Assembly: GCA_965263035.1 (NCBI GenBank)
Contig: OZ253580.1
Coordinates: 2,432,001 to 2,496,000, forward strand
Source: Acidobacteriota bacterium
GTDB taxonomy: Bacteria > Acidobacteriota > UBA6911 > RPQK01 > JAJDTT01
Reading direction: 5' to 3'
DNA length: 64,000 bases
Shown here: positions 19,745 to 30,623 of the stretch, one piece after another
Numbering within the stretch: the stretch's first letter is position 1
Layout of the letters: every line of letters starts with the position of its first letter
The notes under the pieces: model-generated
Databases searched by the model: none
Told to the model about the DNA's origin: nothing
The model's input: only the letters and a program-made list of their open reading frames with translations
Translations under genes and position numbers: made by a program

Positions 19745-20994
19745 ACGAATCTCCGACCCTGGCCTTGGACCTCTCGACCCGGACCCGGCCGGGAGAAACT
19801 TCTCTCCCGCCGGATGGGCGGGAGCCTGTGGTCCGCATGGTGGACCTCATCGTCTTCGACGCCATCGGCAAGAGAGCCAGCGACATTCATCTGGAGACCT
19901 ACGACGGGGAGTTCCGGATCCGCTACCGGATCGACGGGGTCCTCTATCCGGTCGCCGCGCCGCCCCTGGCCCTTCGGGATGCCCTCATTTCCCGAGTCAA
20001 GATCCTGGGCGATCTGGACATCGGCGAACGGCGGCTTCCCCAGGACGGCCGAATCCGGATGAAGGTTCCGCAGTCCGGAGAGGACCGTGAGATCGATCTC
20101 CGCGTCTCCTCCCTCCCCACCATTTTCGGAGAAAAGCTGGCATTGAGGATCCTGGACCGGGAGCACCTCCCGCGGAGCCTGTCCGAACTCGGGCTGGAGG
20201 AGGTCTCCCTCGAGCGGCTGAGGAGAGCCCTGCGGAGATCCCATGGAATCGTGCTGGCCACCGGCCCCACCGGTAGCGGCAAGACCAGCACCCTCTACAC
20301 CTGCTTGTCCCGGCTCAACCACCCCGGAACGAACATCAATACCGTGGAGGACCCGGTGGAGTTCAACCTCTCGGGGATCAACCAGGTCCAGACCAAGGAC
20401 TCGGTGGGTCTGAGCTTCGCCACAGCACTCCGGGCTCTGCTGCGCCAAGACCCGGATGTCCTTATGGTGGGGGAGATCCGGGACCGGGAAACCGCGGAGA
20501 TCGCCATTCGCGCCGCCATCACCGGACACTTGGTGTTGAGCACCCTGCATACGAACGACGCCGCATCGACGGTGGGCCGGCTGCTGGACATGGGGATTCC
20601 TCCGTTCCTCATCGCCAGTTCGGTGAACCTGGTGTGTGCCCAACGGCTGGTGAGGAGGCTGTGCGGGGAATGCAAGGAGCCTAACCGGGCCCCGGTTCCG
20701 ATCCCGGAACCGGCCGGAACCGGGACCGACCCGATCCTCAAGATCTCCCGCTTCGACGCCCGGGGTTGCCCCGCCTGTCACGGCACGGGCTATCGAGGGA
20801 GGATCGGACTGTTCGAAACCATGGAGGTGACCGAGACCATCCAGCAACTGATCCTCCAGGGTGCCGACGACGCCAGGATCCGGAAACAGGCGGTCAGCGA
20901 GGGGATGGTCACCCTGCGGGGCAGCGGACTGGAGAAGATTCGTTCCGGCGTCAGCACCGTGGAGGAGGTGCTGAAGGCCACGCACCTCGCTTGA
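19729..20994 (+). CDS. pilB: Type IV pilus assembly ATPase, PilB/GspE-like (lacks the N-terminal domain)
   Basis: ASDIHLE, ERRLPQDGR, GPTGSGKT, LRQDPD, TGHLVLSTLHTN and CxxC tetracysteine motifs. Confidence 0.85.
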   Translation: MAVPVDESPTLALDLSTRTRPGETSLPPDGREPVVRMVDLIVFDAIGKRASDIHLETYDGEFRIRYRIDGVLYPVAAPPLALRDALISRVKILGDLDIGERRLPQDGRIRMKVPQSGEDREIDLRVSSLPTIFGEKLALRILDREHLPRSLSELGLEEVSLERLRRALRRSHGIVLATGPTGSGKTSTLYTCLSRLNHPGTNINTVEDPVEFNLSGINQVQTKDSVGLSFATALRALLRQDPDVLMVGEIRDRETAEIAIRAAITGHLVLSTLHTNDAASTVGRLLDMGIPPFLIASSVNLVCAQRLVRRLCGECKEPNRAPVPIPEPAGTGTDPILKISRFDARGCPACHGTGYRGRIGLFETMEVTETIQQLILQGADDARIRKQAVSEGMVTLRGSGLEKIRSGVSTVEEVLKATHLA

Positions 20995-21005
20995 CCCGGT
21001 GAGTA

Positions 21006-22094
21006 ATGGAGGTTGAACAGACGCGTCCCACGGGACAGATCCTGAAGCTGTTGCGGCTGGCCCACGACTCCGGCGCCAGCGACCTGCATCTCATTCCCGA
21101 TTCCGTACCCTGCCTGCGTGTCCACGGCCGGCTCGTGGCCGCGAACCATCTCCGGCTGAACCTGGAAGAGACTCGGCACTTGGCCTACGGCATCATGTCC
21201 GACCGGCAAAGGGCCCGCTACGAGCGTCTCCGGGAGATCGACTTCAGCTTCGAGGTGGAGGGCCTGTCCCGATTCCGCGCCAACGTCTTCACCCGCCGTG
21301 GAAAGACGGCGGCAGTCGTACGTCTCATCCCGCTTCAGGTCAAACGCCTGGAGGAGTTGGGACTGCCGGCGGTGGTGGATGGTCTGGCCGTCCGGCCCCG
21401 CGGCCTGGTCCTGGTCGCCGGCTCCTCGGGCAGCGGCAAGTCGACCACGCTGGCGGCTCTCATCGACCGGATCAATCGAACCCAGGCCAAACACATCATC
21501 ACCATCGAGGACCCCATCGAGTTCGTGCACCACAACCACATGAGCGTCGTCAGCCAGAGGGAGGTGCCGGGGGATTCCTCCTCGTTTGCGTCGGCGCTCC
21601 GCATGGCCCTGCGGCAGGACCCCGATGTGGTCCTGGTGGGGGAGATGAGGGATACCGAGACCATCGAGACCACTCTCCGGCTGGCGGAAACGGGGCATCT
21701 GACCCTTTCCACCCTCCACACCCGATCGGCCCCCGACACCATCGGGAGAATTCTGGACATGTTCCCTGGCGATCAGCAGGGCCGGATCCAGTCCCTTCTC
21801 TCCTCGGTCCTGGAGGGAATCGTCTGTCAGGCCCTGATCCCGTGCCGGAAGGAGCCGGGGCGGGTCGTGGCCGCGGAAGTCCTGATTCCCAACCCGGCCA
21901 TCCGGAACCTGATCCGCGAGCAAAAGCTCCACCAGATCCGCTCGGCCATGCAGACAGGCCAGGCCGGAAGCGGGATGTGCACCCTGAATCAGAGCCTGGC
22001 CAGGCTCTTCCTCGCCGGCCGGATCTCCTACGAGACCTGCCTGGAGGTCTCGCAGGACGCTGCCGACCTGCGGCGGTGCCTGGATCGGCCGTAG
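21006..22094 (+). CDS. pilT: Type IV pilus retraction ATPase
   Basis: GSSGSGKST, TIEDPIEF, ETGHL and the AIRNLIRE signature. Confidence 0.92.
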   Translation: MEVEQTRPTGQILKLLRLAHDSGASDLHLIPDSVPCLRVHGRLVAANHLRLNLEETRHLAYGIMSDRQRARYERLREIDFSFEVEGLSRFRANVFTRRGKTAAVVRLIPLQVKRLEELGLPAVVDGLAVRPRGLVLVAGSSGSGKSTTLAALIDRINRTQAKHIITIEDPIEFVHHNHMSVVSQREVPGDSSSFASALRMALRQDPDVVLVGEMRDTETIETTLRLAETGHLTLSTLHTRSAPDTIGRILDMFPGDQQGRIQSLLSSVLEGIVCQALIPCRKEPGRVVAAEVLIPNPAIRNLIREQKLHQIRSAMQTGQAGSGMCTLNQSLARLFLAGRISYETCLEVSQDAADLRRCLDRP

Positions 22095-22145
22095 GGCCGC
22101 CCCTCCGGTTCACTGTTTTCCAACCCCCAATCGTTACCAATATCA

Positions 22146-23246
22146 GTGGACACTCCGAACGAGCGGGAATGGCGTCCCCGCCGTATTGCTCAGGCTCGAA
22201 TCGGAAGGATCTCGACCCGGCAGCTGGCCCTGTTCACGCGGCAACTGTCGGTGATGCTGGGGGCGGGCGTCTCGCTGGTGTCGGCCCTGCAGAACCTGGC
22301 GCAACAGGAGGAGAACCGCGCCCTGGGCACCACCCTGCGCCAAGTCCGTTACGACGTGGAATCGGGGTCCACGCTGGCTGCGGCGCTGGAACGCCATCCC
22401 CGTGTCTTCGATCCCCTATTCGTCAACCTGGTCCGGGCGGGAGAGACGGGTGGATTTCTGGACACCGTGTTCAAGCGTCTCACCCGATTCTTGGAAAAGA
22501 GGCTCCAGTGGCGCAAGGCGGTGCTCTCGGCCTCTCTCTATCCGGCGGTCGTCATCATGACTTCGTTCATGGTCGTGGGCGTCATCCTGGTCTGGGTGAT
22601 TCCGGTCTTCGCATCCCTCTTCGCCAACCTGGACCTCCCCCTCCCATTGCCGACGCGGATGGTCATGGGAGCCAGCGGGTTCCTGAGCCGGTGGGGAGTG
22701 CCCCTGAGCCTGGGGGCGGGGACGGCGGCCCTGGCGGGTGGATTCTACTTTCGAACGGCCAAGGGGCGGAGGTGGGTGGATCGATTCATCCTGGCGGCCC
22801 CGCTGTTGGGCCCGGTGACGACCCAACTCCTGACGGCCCGTTTCGCACGGACCTTTTCCACCCTCCTTTCCAGCGGAGTCCCCATCCTGGAAGCCATGGA
22901 CCTGACGGCGCGGGCTCTGGGGAACGTGCGGTTTCAAGAAACGGTGCTGGCGCTCCGGAGTAAGGTCGAGTCGGGGAGCACCTTGGCGGAACCATTCCGG
23001 CACAGCGGCCTCTTTCCCCAGATGGCGTCGGAAATCATTCGGATCGGCGAGTTGACGGGCACGCTGGACGACATGCTTCTGAAACTGGCCGTCTACTACG
23101 AGGAGGAAGCGGACACCAGCATAAACCGGTTTCTGGCGCTCCTGGAACCCATGATGATGTTGGTTCTGGGTATCGTCGTCGGCGGCATGGTGCTTTCCAT
23201 GTATATGCCCATCTTCAGCCTCATGGGGCGGCTTTCCAGCTTCTGA
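22146..23246 (+). CDS. pilC: Type IV pilus platform protein, PilC/GspF
   Basis: FTRQLSVML, AGETGG, GELTGTLD and LLEP...MYMPIF. Confidence 0.9.
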   Translation: MDTPNEREWRPRRIAQARIGRISTRQLALFTRQLSVMLGAGVSLVSALQNLAQQEENRALGTTLRQVRYDVESGSTLAAALERHPRVFDPLFVNLVRAGETGGFLDTVFKRLTRFLEKRLQWRKAVLSASLYPAVVIMTSFMVVGVILVWVIPVFASLFANLDLPLPLPTRMVMGASGFLSRWGVPLSLGAGTAALAGGFYFRTAKGRRWVDRFILAAPLLGPVTTQLLTARFARTFSTLLSSGVPILEAMDLTARALGNVRFQETVLALRSKVESGSTLAEPFRHSGLFPQMASEIIRIGELTGTLDDMLLKLAVYYEEEADTSINRFLALLEPMMMLVLGIVVGGMVLSMYMPIFSLMGRLSSF

Positions 23247-23423
23247 GGAACCCGGAGCCGGAATCGGAAATTCTTCTCATGGATACGCGGGCGGGGACGT
23301 TTCATACTATGCAAGGACGAGACAGCAAGCGAGGATGAAATAATCATGCTCCAACGAACCAAGGTCTTTCCGGTGTCCGACTGCGGAGCCCGGATCCGAA
23401 AAGAGTCCGGCAGCTCTGCCTCG

Positions 23424-23909
23424 ATGCCCTCTCACTCTCCCCAGAACGGAGCTGCCGGATTCTCTCTGATCGAACTCATGATCGTGGTGGCCATCATCGG
23501 GATCATCTCCATTCTGGCGGTTCCCAATTTCATGCGTTCCCGGCTCTTCGCCAACGAAACTTCGGCCATCGCCTCGCTCCGGGTCACCGTCACGAGCGAG
23601 ATCACCTATGCCTCCACCGTGGGGAACGGATCCTTCGGTAGTACAGAGGACTTGTTGGACAACGGGCTGATCGATGCGGCGCTGGGGTCCGGCACCAAGG
23701 ACGGCTACAACCTGAGCCTGACGGCGGACGGAGCCAGTGGATTCACGGTCACCGCCGTTCCCGTCACGGCGGGCACCACCGGACAGCGGGGATTCTATGC
23801 CGATCAGACCGGGGTGATCCGGTACAGCGAGGACGGATCGGCGCCGACCGCGGCCAGTCCCGCATTGGGCACCGAGAGCGCGAAGGAAGAAGAAACGGAC
23901 GGAGATTAA
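23424..23909 (+). CDS. Type IV pilin / prepilin
   Basis: Class III signal G|FSLIELMIVVAIIGII; start uncertain (23346 or 23424). Confidence 0.88.
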   Translation: MPSHSPQNGAAGFSLIELMIVVAIIGIISILAVPNFMRSRLFANETSAIASLRVTVTSEITYASTVGNGSFGSTEDLLDNGLIDAALGSGTKDGYNLSLTADGASGFTVTAVPVTAGTTGQRGFYADQTGVIRYSEDGSAPTAASPALGTESAKEEETDGD

Positions 23910-23915
23910 GGATGG

Positions 23916-24545
23916 ATCGGGTCGAGTGCAGGGGATTGCGCCCCTGCACCCTCCCACACCACCGGACGTACCGTTTTCAGTATCCGGCGGTTGGAGTCAC
24001 TCGAGGCTCTTTCGAGCCTCGTAAAGGGCCTTTCTTTCCGGTTTTCGCCGCCGCTGGGACTTGATCTCCGCCCTTCCGGCTTGACGGGTTCCACCCTTGG
24101 GCCTTCCGTGCCGGGTCCGAGGGGCCTCCCCCCGCCCCGTTTCCGGAGGTAGTTGCGATCCCGCTGACGAGTCCACCATAGGGCCCGTCCGACTCCTTCG
24201 GTCCTTCGCTCCACCGGCATTATCCGGCTTCTTCGCTACTATGACCTCTGCTGACTTCTCAAAGGCTCTCACCCTTGAGATCTCCCCGAGTAAGGTGCTG
24301 CATCTTTCCCCCCGGGCCGCCCGGCTCTACCTGGTACGTCTGGATGGGGTTCGGGTTTCGCTGTTGCTCGCCAGCTCACCGCCCGCACCCGGCCTCGCTG
24401 CCGGTTCGTGTTCCTGCGGTCGTGGGTTTGCCTTCCGCTTCCTTCAGCTTCACCTCGCGGCTACGCCTTGCGGTTCGGCTAGGGTTGGTCCCATCACCTC
24501 CCTTGGGATCTTTCATCCCTTAGATACAGCCCATGTCGGGCGCAC
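23916..24545 (-). mobile_element. ORF-less group IIC intron, family B, copy B2
   Basis: Reverse complement appears identical to B1 (630 nt); 5' exon ends GGCGACAAGAAAGTCGCCGCTC. Confidence 0.92.
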
Positions 24546-24678
24546 GAGCGGCGACTTTCTTGTCGCCGACCAGGGGGGCAGGGGGGACGGAGTCCCCACT
24601 TTACACTTTCCGGCCTCTACACTTCCCGCCCACTGAATCGCCTAACAACACAAAAGAGCAGGCGGCAAGAAAGCCGCC
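24546..24678. repeat. Composite REP module between intron B2 and IS110-A
   Basis: REP unit, GGGGACGGAGTCCCC hairpin, linker and a REP unit interrupted by IS110-A. Confidence 0.85.
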
Positions 24679-24699
24679 TGTACCCTTCTCAAGTAGTCT

Positions 24700-24880
24700 T
24701 TAGGGAACTTCACCCATGGTGGGTGAAGAGGGCCAACCGGCCGGGAGCTACCATAAAGCCGCAGCGCTCTCAGAGCACCTGGAGGGGACTCGTGCCCCGG
24801 CCGGTAGCCGCGATGGAGAACCTGTGGGAAGTCAGTGTCCAAGAACACCAGTACAGGAACCGATCCGAATCGCGGCGGCC
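24700..24880 (+). ncRNA. Predicted bridge RNA of IS110-A (ends approximate)
   Basis: AAAGCCGC (24755-62) = left target; CTGGAGGGG (24779-87) = reverse complement of right target; GTGGGAAGTC (24824-33) = left donor; GTACAGG (24851-57) = reverse complement of right donor. Confidence 0.85.
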
Positions 24881-24911
24881 CGACGTCCATTTAATCACTA
24901 GGAGGTTCGGG

Positions 24912-26159
24912 ATGAAACCAAGTCAATGGTTTGTGGGGGTCGATTGGGCGTCCCAGGCGCACCAAGTCTGCGTCGTGGATGAGCGAGGCACCTGTCAGGG
25001 ACAGCGCAGCTTCCCGCACAGCGGTTCGGGCCTGGCCCAGATGGCCGACTGGATCCTGCAGCAGACGGGGACGAGAGCGGAGGCCGTCTCGGTGGCGATT
25101 GAAGTGCCGCACGGTCCGGTGGTGGAGTTTTTGATGGGGCGATGCTTTGTCGTGTATGCCATCAATCCGAAGCAGCTGGATCGATTCCGCGACCGCTTCT
25201 CGCCGGCAGGCGCCAAGGATGACCGCCGCGATGCCCGAGTGCTGGCCGACGCGATCCGAACCGACGGCCATCGCTGGCAACGGCTGGAACCGGTCGATTC
25301 TGAAATGATCCAGCTGCGCGAGTTCTCAAGACTGGGTGCGCAGTTGACCCGCGATCGGACCCGGCTTCTCAACCGCCTGCGCCAACAACTCTGGCGCTAC
25401 TATCCGCAGTTCCTACACCTGAGCAAGGATCTCGCCGAGCCCTGGGTGATGGAAGTGTGGAAGCTGGCCCCGACACCGGATGCGGCCCGGAAGCTGCGCC
25501 CGAGCCGGGTCGCCAAGGTGTTGAAAAAGCATCGGATCCGGCGTATCGACGCCCCAGAGGTCCTGCGTCGCTTGCGGGTACGCTCCCTCCCGGTCGCCCC
25601 GGGCACCACCCAGGCGGTGAGGGTCCACATCGAAAGTCTCGGTGAGCGCCTGGCCGTGGTGCGGAACCAACTCCGGGACATCTCTCGTGAGCTCGACCGT
25701 TTGATCCGGGCTTGGGAGAAGCGGTGCGAGTCGACGCCGGGGCCCCAAGGACCGTGCCGGGACGTGGCGATCCTCGCCTCCCTGCCCGGCGTCGGCCGAA
25801 TCGTCCTGGCCACCCTGCTCTCGGAAGCCTTCGATGCGATCCGGCGCCGAGATTACGCCGCTTTGCGATGTCTGTGCGGGGTGGCCCCCGTGACCCGGAG
25901 TTCCGGCAAATACACCCGTGTCGTGCGCCGCCAAGCCGTTCATCCTCGTCTGCGGGAAGCGGCCTATCATTGGTCGCGCGTGGCCACGCAACACGACCCC
26001 ATCAGCCGAGCCAAGTACGCTGCCCTGCGGGAGCGCGGCCACGGCCATGCCCGGGCCCTGCGGTCCGTTGCCGATCGCCTGCTGGCGGTGGCCTGCGCCA
26101 TGTTGCGAGACCAGACGGAATACGATGCGAATCATGCAAGACAGCGCCGGGCTGCTTGA
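24912..26159 (+). CDS. IS110-family transposase/recombinase (DEDD)
   Basis: VGVDWA, AIE, KDDRRDA, SLPGVG and GVAPVTRSSG motifs; GGAGG RBS. Confidence 0.93.
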   Translation: MKPSQWFVGVDWASQAHQVCVVDERGTCQGQRSFPHSGSGLAQMADWILQQTGTRAEAVSVAIEVPHGPVVEFLMGRCFVVYAINPKQLDRFRDRFSPAGAKDDRRDARVLADAIRTDGHRWQRLEPVDSEMIQLREFSRLGAQLTRDRTRLLNRLRQQLWRYYPQFLHLSKDLAEPWVMEVWKLAPTPDAARKLRPSRVAKVLKKHRIRRIDAPEVLRRLRVRSLPVAPGTTQAVRVHIESLGERLAVVRNQLRDISRELDRLIRAWEKRCESTPGPQGPCRDVAILASLPGVGRIVLATLLSEAFDAIRRRDYAALRCLCGVAPVTRSSGKYTRVVRRQAVHPRLREAAYHWSRVATQHDPISRAKYAALRERGHGHARALRSVADRLLAVACAMLRDQTEYDANHARQRRAA

Positions 26160-26405
26160 TCCGGATCTGGACCGAGGGACGTTGTAGGCTCCACCCCGGC
26201 GCGGTCGCACCAGAAGCTCAAGAGCGACATCCATCCGGGCGACCATGGACTGGACCCGGGGATCGCTTCAGGAGGTCAATGGGAACCACCGTGCCAGAGA
26301 GGACCCCCAGGGGGAGGCCCGGCGAAGGAAGCGTAGCGACCGCAACGGGGCCTCCCCCTGGGGGTCAAATCCCGCTTGACAAAGGGTGGGAAGTCCCCTC
26401 CAGCG

Positions 26406-30623
<4,218 letters not shown>

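Follow-up and report, generated by a model that had tools for sequence, protein, structure and literature searches.

The segment 24679-26396 of a 64,000-nucleotide stretch of an Acidobacteriota bacterium (contig OZ253580.1, positions 2,432,001 to 2,496,000; hereafter the window, whose own numbering is used for coordinates) is very probably an insertion sequence (IS) of the IS110 group that uses a bridge RNA. The sequence anatomy of the element, the fold of its RNA, the covariation, the family of target sites, and a natural site without the element were all seen directly. The original prediction for this DNA had described an IS110 bridge RNA programmed to repetitive extragenic palindrome (REP) sequences. 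Every sequence string that it quoted is present at or near its expected place, and the order of the guides, their strand senses, and the two stem-enclosed loops are borne out by shuffling, by stem covariation, and by covariation between guides and flanks.

Counted with one copy of the CC core, the element is 1718 bp long, and the same span is found in all four full-length copies in its genome (A, the copy in the window, and B, C, and D). From left to right, the locus consists of a REP hairpin, the element, the word CCTCCAG, two bases, and the stop codon of an rpoC-like gene, with the insertion point of copy A 8 nt past that stop codon. The same dinucleotide, CC, stands at both junctions, in donor and target alike; the core of IS621 is CT. 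The encoded recombinase matches the Pfam domains PF01548 (DEDD_Tnp_IS110; E-value 1.4e-34, residues 8-165) and PF02371 (Transposase_20; 2e-16, residues 286-369), scores 189.4 bits against the NCBIfam model NF033542, "IS110 family RNA-guided transposase" (cutoff 140), and has an open reading frame in all four copies. Its sole relative with a solved structure is the IS621 transposase (8wt6; phmmer E-value 8.8e-8, two short stretches). D11, D104, D107, and S331 align onto IS621 catalytic positions, and E64 was assigned from a local IE motif only, the pairwise IS621 alignment being offset by 3 residues there. In a word-index protein search, 7990 of the 8000 scored candidates reached an E-value of 0.001 or below; because the best matches were mostly 411-430 aa long, 415 aa is the usual size for this clade.

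The left end of the element, a stretch of 233 nt that precedes the recombinase gene, folds into a bridge RNA with two loops, in which all four guide words and both stem pairs of the original prediction are present in canonical order (Table 1): left-target guide (LTG), right-target guide (RTG), left-donor guide (LDG), and right-donor guide (RDG). Following the strand-sense rules for IS621 guides (PMC11208160), LTG and LDG read as the top strand of the left half-site plus core, and RTG and RDG as the reverse complement of the core plus right half-site. The matches are 8 nt (LTG), 9 nt (RTG), 10 nt (LDG), and 7 nt (RDG) long, 34 nt in sum. In 20000 dinucleotide-preserving shuffles of the left end, the core-anchored matches were reached singly 211, 108, 14, and 611 times, while the summed match of 34 nt was never reached (mean 18.3, maximum 29). 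The earlier description needed two small corrections: the LTG and LDG words hold the first core base only, the next base being A, not C, and the RTG word runs on for another 2 bases (AC, 24788-24789) that match the final two bases of the right end of the element.

The predicted structure places these words where the published architecture has them, on the 5' and 3' sides of two internal loops. The RNA at 24693-24900 folds with -85.6 kcal/mol (z -2.77) into a 5' hairpin and two long stems, each of which encloses an internal loop with a small apical hairpin. When ten left ends were aligned (copies A, B, and C and the relatives L030, L031, and L033-L037, described below), both basal stems came out in RNAalifold. 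A structure set by hand, with four helices and 27 pairs, was 95.2% paired across the ten left ends, with changes on both sides in 12 of its pairs; its pairing, its pair count, and its covariation score each went unreached in 500 column shuffles, and structures slid by 1-3 columns gave 34-50% pairing.

Table 1. Features of the IS110-group element and its flanks, in window coordinates.
Feature	Position	Strand	Remarks
REP-type hairpin GGCGGC-AAGAAA-GCCGCC	24661-24678	+	On the minus strand terminator-like, with T-rich tail
Left target AAAGCCG	24670-24676	+	In 3' arm of REP-type hairpin, as is left CC core copy
Left CC core copy	24677-24678	+	Read from sequence
Element start TGTAC	24679-24683	+	Read from sequence
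Candidate -10 box TACCCT	24681-24686	+	Of use only in circular element
5' stem-loop (CTTCACCC...GGGTGAAG)	24708-24728	+	Minimum-free-energy fold; kept in near relatives
Target-binding loop module	24737-24804	+	Basal stem 24737-24749 / 24793-24804; apical stem-loop 24764-24778
Target-loop basal stem words CCGGCCGGG and CCCGGCCGG	24737-24745 and 24796-24804		Paired with each other
LTG AAAGCCGC	24755-24762	+	First loop, 5' side
RTG CTGGAGGGG	24779-24787	+	First loop, 3' side
Target-loop handshake bases AC	24788-24789	+	Directly 3' of RTG
Donor-binding loop module	24807-24876	+	Basal stem 24807-24814 / 24869-24876; apical stem 24835-24838 / 24845-24848
Donor-loop basal stem words CCGCGAT and ATCGCGG	24808-24814 and 24869-24875		Paired with each other
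LDG GTGGGAAGTC	24824-24833	+	Second loop, 5' side
RDG GTACAGG	24851-24857	+	Second loop, 3' side
Recombinase gene, 415 aa	24912-26159	+	AGGAGG upstream at 24900-24905
Right-end hairpin	26302-26366	+	18-bp perfect arms, 29-nt loop; one sub-threshold spurious miRNA match marks the structure
Candidate -35 box TTGACA	26376-26381	+	15 nt from element end
Left donor GTGGGAAGT and right CC core copy	26386-26394 and 26395-26396 (26386-26396)	+	
Right target CCTCCAG	26397-26403	+	2 nt from rpoC stop codon
rpoC-like gene, 1405 aa	26406-30623	-	Stop codon 26406-26408

The right-target match continues past the guide itself. With the two bases AC that follow it, the RTG is the reverse complement of the right junction GT-CC-CCTCCAG. 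In IS621, the two bases 3' of the RTG pair with donor positions 6-7 after strand exchange, an arrangement known as the handshake (PMC11208158), and the target-loop handshake fits in copy A, where AC faces the donor end ...AAGT-CC. The dinucleotide AC or AU follows the core guide in all ten aligned left ends and in the copies of genome G088, and donor positions 6-7 are GT at all nine located right ends and in G088.

A check on guide-target covariation among homologs had been proposed with the original prediction, and it came out in its favor: the left-target, right-target, and left-donor guides change in step with flanks and ends. A scan of species-representative genomes gave 14 loci, of which L030-L037 were used; L038 (without the left half of the RNA) and L039-L043 (19-40-residue fragments at contig ends) were left out, as were two loci in G017 (39% identity) with no recognisable RDG word. 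G186 contributed only its RTG, LDG, and right end, the start of its left end not having been located. The recombinases of the analyzed relatives are 46-81% identical to the one in the window. All analyzed elements start with TGTACC, carry CAGTACAG(G/C) in the second loop, and end in ...AGT-CC where the right end was found, which was so for 9 of the 12 elements examined (not in L031, L033, or L035).

The left guide is identical to the flank in L031 (AAAGTCCCC, 9/9), in L034 (TGGCCCCCC, 9/9), in L036 (GTCGCCCC, 8/8, also in a hairpin), and in each of three copies in G088, of the same genus (ACAGTCCCC, flank GGGGGAC-TAAC-AGTCCCC, 9/9). It has one mismatch to the flank in L032, which is of the same element type as L031, and two in 9 positions in L030; the match is 5 nt (CCCCC) in L037 and 5-6 nt only in L033 and L035. 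On the right-target side, L036 pairs GTAGG+AC with the right junction GT-CC-TAC, G186 pairs CACTGGG+AC with GT-CC-CAGTG, and L037 sets a G-run RTG against a C-run flank. The LDG likewise tracks each element's own right end: GTGGGAAGT in the window, GTGAGGAGT in L034, GTGAAGAGT in L036, and GTGGGGAGT in L037. When the 5' side of the first loop was compared with the left flank in a 10 x 10 table, the own-flank sum was 75 (permutation mean 39.4, maximum 68) and was reached in none of 100000 permutations of the ten element types, a figure that is descriptive, the relatives not being independent. In each of the ten rows the diagonal held the highest value, in three of them as a tie.

The distribution of these elements is patchy. 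Among 301 sampled genomes of the same phylum, matches at an E-value of 1e-60 or below occurred in 4, the genome of the window (G000) included, and in 3 of 185 genera. Elements with 46-59% identical recombinases and the same end words are labelled Alphaproteobacteria, Spirochaetia, Azotimanducaceae, and Gemmatimonadales; judged by these sequences, the patchy distribution together with the shared end words suggests horizontal spread.

A DNA search of the 6.2-Mb genome G000 gave 29 matches. Four are the full-length copies, at 100% (A), 96% (B), and 85% (C and D); 22 fall on repeat DNA of about 80 bp on the left of the element; and the other three are a fragment consisting of the left end only, an internal fragment of 44 nt, and the right-end hairpin matching itself. 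Copies A and B are 95.5% identical, A is 85% identical to C and D, and C and D are 99.4% identical at different sites, an identity best read as recent movement. The guides differ between the copies together with their flanks. Copies A and B have the left-target guide AAAGCCG-CA and the left flank AAAGCCG-CC; copies C and D have AATGTCC-CT (CU in the RNA) and A(A/G)AATGTC-CC; a 162-bp remnant (L005; G000:C1, about 2558570-2558731) has AAAGTCG-CA and AAAGTCG-CC. Five left-end differences between A and C cluster in the 11 nt of the guide, with nearly identical adjoining stems, and on the other side the right flank starts with CCTCC in all four copies and the RTG is constant.

The remnant L005 ends in ...AGTGTCC and is followed directly by the right half of a target, CCTCCCA; its deletion joins an internal GTCC of the left end to the GTCC of the true right end and was possibly made by the recombinase at a pseudo-donor site, or by microhomology. 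A contig in run X1 carries the same junction (loose end at 24840). At the right-end hairpin, copies C and D retain the arms through a compensatory G/C exchange, the loop of copy B is the reverse complement of that of copy A (an inversion between the arms), and the 81% relative L032 is without the hairpin.

The guides are programmed to a REP, as the original prediction had it, and the arm of the REP hairpin holds the left target; within such hairpins, reconstructed targets are also found unoccupied. Hairpins of the type GG(C/G)G(A/G)C with a perfect 6-bp stem gave 889 strand-hits in the genome, or about 445 palindromes, each counted on both strands; a looser pattern gave 350 matches, false positives in coding sequence included, and the strict count was used. 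The loops met most often are AAGAAA, TGGAA, AAGAAT, and AAGGAT; CCTCC (120) and GCTCC (99) are the most frequent words after the hairpin, and REPs often stand in tandem. The 14-mer of the A-type target, AAAGCCGCCCCTCC, occurs exactly at 2 sites, both unoccupied, and with at most one mismatch at 102 (0 and 8 in the reversed-genome control); the six-C 14-mer of the C/D type, AATGTCCCCCCTCC, occurs at 22 and 63 (control 0 and 1).

A site without the element was found as well. Contigs of runs X15 and X16, which belong to one study, join 24678 to 26395 with 11 bases (CCTCCAAGCCG) between them, a joint that supports the boundaries and indicates that the insertion is not ancient. The half-site GCCGCCCCTCCA stands twice in tandem in the element-free contig, so that two overlapping candidate targets lie downstream of rpoC in this related population. 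The REP family is also used by another kind of element. The 5' part of a group II intron lies on the minus strand at 24201-24546 (Rfam RF02001, 81.4 bits at 24297-24464; RF01998, 47.2 bits at 24201-24294). Its 5' end, GTGCGCCCGAC..., stands immediately behind a REP hairpin ...GTCGCCGCTC, and neither a domain V/VI nor a gene for a reverse transcriptase was seen downstream of it. The same intron start follows a REP hairpin at at least 9 other genome sites among the matches listed, so that two kinds of mobile element use this REP family as a landing site.

We infer that the element excises as a circle in which its right end abuts its left end across one CC core. The split promoter TTGACA-N17-TACCCT proposed in the original prediction is present as a sequence arrangement, 15 nt of the right end and 2 nt of the left end making up the spacing of 17 nt across the joined ends, and relatives have a TTGnnn box at the same 15-nt distance from the right end (TTGACA, TTGAAG, TTGATA, TTGCAG, and TTGCCA were seen). 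A consensus scan of the integrated context, 24560-24930, found no sigma-70-like promoter. Such an arrangement, with the promoter absent when integrated and rebuilt in the circle, is that of the IS110 family (PMC11208160). The circle would thus set TTGACA 17 nt upstream of TACCCT and allow an RNA of roughly 180 nt to be transcribed from the left end. This RNA would fold into the 5' hairpin and the two stem-enclosed internal loops, with GUGGGAAGUC and GUACAGG in the second loop serving as putative guides for the element's own right and left ends; the target would be CCTCC together with the 3' arm of the REP-like hairpin in front of it. Strand exchange at the CC core would then be the work of the DEDD/serine recombinase, with D11, E64, D104, D107, and S331 as candidate residues, after which the AC behind the right-target guide would pair with the GT preceding the core at the donor end. 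Contigs of 275 nt and 270 nt from the RNA-library runs X15 and X16 match 24661-24927 without differences; such a match does not demonstrate transcription, and their source could be copy A or B.

Several observations weigh against this reading. (i) In copy A, the second core position is unmatched by both LTG and LDG (CA vs CC). (ii) The donor-loop handshake bases, AA, are unpaired with target positions 6-7 in copies A-D; the first of these bases fits the target in L033 (as a wobble), L035, L036, and L037. (iii) Copies C and D lie in five-C REP variants, their left junction being 1 nt out of register with the left-target guide, which matches the six-C variant perfectly (7 + 2, one G-U included); it would seem that in C and D the cut followed the right guide. 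(iv) Copies A and B are only 95.5% identical, and their subfamily therefore appears to be without very recent movement; the -35 box of B is mutated (TTGAAG), whereas A keeps TTGACA. (v) The element-free contig for the flanks of copy A carries 11 extra bases, and the left flank of copy A belongs to a REP subtype that normally continues TGTCCCA, so that the site before insertion was atypical or was altered afterwards. (vi) No joint of right end to left end was found in four public runs searched as Logan contigs, which cannot show rare circles or transcript ends, so that this absence does not itself count against a circle. (vii) Rfam 15 has no matching bridge-RNA family, either in E-value mode over 24400-26700 or at the gathering threshold over 20000-24700.

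The left flank itself belongs to the repeat of about 80 bp (24600-24678 and 22 other places in G000), which usually runs REP1 (CAGGCGGC..GCCGCCTG), TCCCAGT, REP2 (GGGCGAC..GTCGCCC), and CTCC. In copy A, REP1 is followed at once by the element, and the TG with which the element begins completes the stem of REP1. Site A therefore has the look of a hybrid, or of a site from which about 28 bp have been lost.

Some of these points would suit a bridge RNA anatomy that is genuine in a copy A that is now an immobile relic, its guides still legible and its excision and insertion at an end. This we consider unlikely. The 4.5% of positions at which A and B differ would agree with it, as would the lack of a circle junction in the four public runs (contigs only, unable to show rare circles), the unmatched second core base in LTG and LDG, the misfit of the donor-loop handshake bases, and the missing promoter in the integrated state. 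However, every one of the four copies has a full-length open reading frame, copy A still has its four guides and both stems intact, and it is copy A, not copy B, that retains the consensus TTGACA. Moreover, in a related population the same flanks downstream of rpoC meet with the 11 extra bases and no element between them, which argues against an ancient insertion, and the absence of a promoter when integrated is normal for the family (PMC11208160).

A different core was also considered. Both junctions can be read with a shared CCT, so the element could be shifted by one base (GTACCC...AAGTCCC) around a CT core, as in IS621, with CC a mis-registration; the left-target guide of C and D, which ends in CU in the aligned register, would suit this. 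The unoccupied site was rebuilt under each model and searched for in the genome. The CC-model words lie inside REP hairpins (GGGCGGC-AAGAAA-GCCGCCC-CTCC twice, GGGGGACA-AGA-ATGTCCCCC-TCC twice, and the six-C variant 22 times), whereas the CT-model words gave 1 and 3 matches, all in unrelated non-hairpin sequence, and on these grounds the CT core was rejected. In addition, the LDG ends in ...AGT plus one C or U and the RDG reads GTACA-GG, both of which fit a CC core, and the element-free contigs join at 24678 / 26395. The CC core of the original prediction is thus upheld by the unoccupied targets, the guide ends, and the element-free joint, and we regard a CT core as highly improbable.

Hardly any credence is left for the idea that the matches are not guides at all, the left end having captured pieces of REPs or of its own ends or matching by chance in GC-rich DNA: the genome is rich in C-runs and REP copies, which makes short matches common, 0.07-3% of shuffles reached a given single word, and the reversed-genome control for the A-type 14-mer gave 162 matches at up to 2 mismatches, but none of 20000 shuffles reached the joint match, the words occupy both internal loops of a fold supported by covariation, and across elements from five phyla they change together with flanks and ends, the adjoining stems staying constant.

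For the annotation of this genome, the element explains the 1.7-kb gap between rpoC and its terminator-like hairpin. It lies between the rpoC stop codon and that hairpin (24659-24680, minus strand, with a T-rich tail), and rpoC transcripts must therefore cross 1.7 kb antisense through the element before they reach the hairpin. Elsewhere in the neighborhood, a plus-strand reading frame of 187 aa (23346-23909) contains a hydrophobic segment, FSLIELMIVVAIIGIISILAVPNF, which we take to resemble the leader region of a type IV pilin or pseudopilin.

Reading the element as a bridge RNA IS of the IS110 group, we tentatively suggest, at somewhat less than even confidence, that the TGTACC...AGT-CC elements form a separate lineage of bridge recombinases with rules of its own. 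The suggestion is based on the two short stretches alignable with IS621 and on the occurrence of such elements in records of Acidobacteriota, Alphaproteobacteria, Spirochaetia, Gammaproteobacteria, and Gemmatimonadota. Its rules appear to be (i) a CC core that is fully read by the right-hand guides only, (ii) an RTG of 9 nt, and (iii) a target embedded in a hairpin. At least three guide variants occur within one genome and track REP subfamilies. Three left-target-guide variants in one genome, matched to different REP subfamilies, make a clear case, at the level of sequence, of natural guide reprogramming, and in the relatives from other phyla all three variable guides have changed in step with their sites. 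If active, the recombinase would be orthogonal to IS621 and IS622, with a different core requirement. The element may be of use in teaching and, being a distant orthologue with a CC core, in the engineering of bridge recombinases. It opens no new question: published work already covers RNA-guided transposition by IS110 elements, the targeting of REPs, promoters at the junction, right guides of greater length, and stem-loops in targets.

The original prediction had also called the element a candidate new programmable recombinase. The differences from IS621 that it named (CC core, size, and long RTG) are present, but their novelty was overstated, none of them lying outside the published variation of the family as far as the cited text covers it: IS110 recombinases range from 300 to 460 aa, the RTG of some orthologues exceeds that of IS621 in length, the family typically targets REP elements, and its circles rebuild a promoter (PMC11208160). 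In ISPpu10, the target stem-loop is a specificity element (10.64898/2026.03.19.712850). Bridge RNAs have been predicted in 85.7% of the IS110-group elements catalogued in ISfinder (PMC11208160), and to call the present element a candidate programmable recombinase says no more than would hold for most IS110 elements. A single literature search found no paper pairing "CC core" with IS110; the supplementary orthologue tables of Durrant 2024 and Perry 2025 may include this clade, and no claim of priority is made.

Of the known systems, the closest in plan are the enterobacterial bridge recombinases IS621 and IS622 (ISCro4) (Durrant 2024, PMC11208160; Hiraizumi 2024, PMC11208158; Perry 2025, 10.1101/2025.05.14.653916). 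Shared with them are the DEDD RuvC-like and serine Tnp domains, an RNA encoded in the left end, two loops with the order LTG-RTG-LDG-RDG, the same strand senses, the core within the guides, handshake bases 3' of the RTG that fit the donor, a REP hairpin as natural target, and, as far as the sequence indicates, a promoter rebuilt across the circle junction. The element nevertheless falls outside the IS621-like subgroup (CT core, about 326 aa, 4-nt RTG). Its recombinase is distant in sequence (phmmer E-value 8.8e-8) and has 415 aa in contrast to the 328 residues of the solved chain, its core is CC instead of CT, its RTG is 9 nt (7 plus core) instead of 4 nt, its LTG and LDG match the first core base only, its RDG is a contiguous 7 nt, and its donor-loop handshake bases misfit in the copies of this genome.

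The target resembles that of ISPpu10 from Pseudomonas putida, which is likewise a REP with a stem-loop on the 5' side and with the 3' arm of the hairpin as left target, present in many identical intergenic copies (10.64898/2026.03.19.712850). Unlike the present element, ISPpu10 duplicates CT, and the role of the stem-loop was mutation-tested there, whereas here the stem-loop is only a constant feature of the target. The seekRNA elements of the IS1111 group (Siddiquee 2024, PMC11187229) share with it the transposase superfamily, the RNA-guided choice of target, and natural re-programming among relatives. In those elements, however, the RNA lies downstream of the transposase gene and the target-matching regions are reversed, whereas here the left end holds every one of the four guide words, ahead of the gene and in the IS110 order, which sets the element apart from the IS1111 group.

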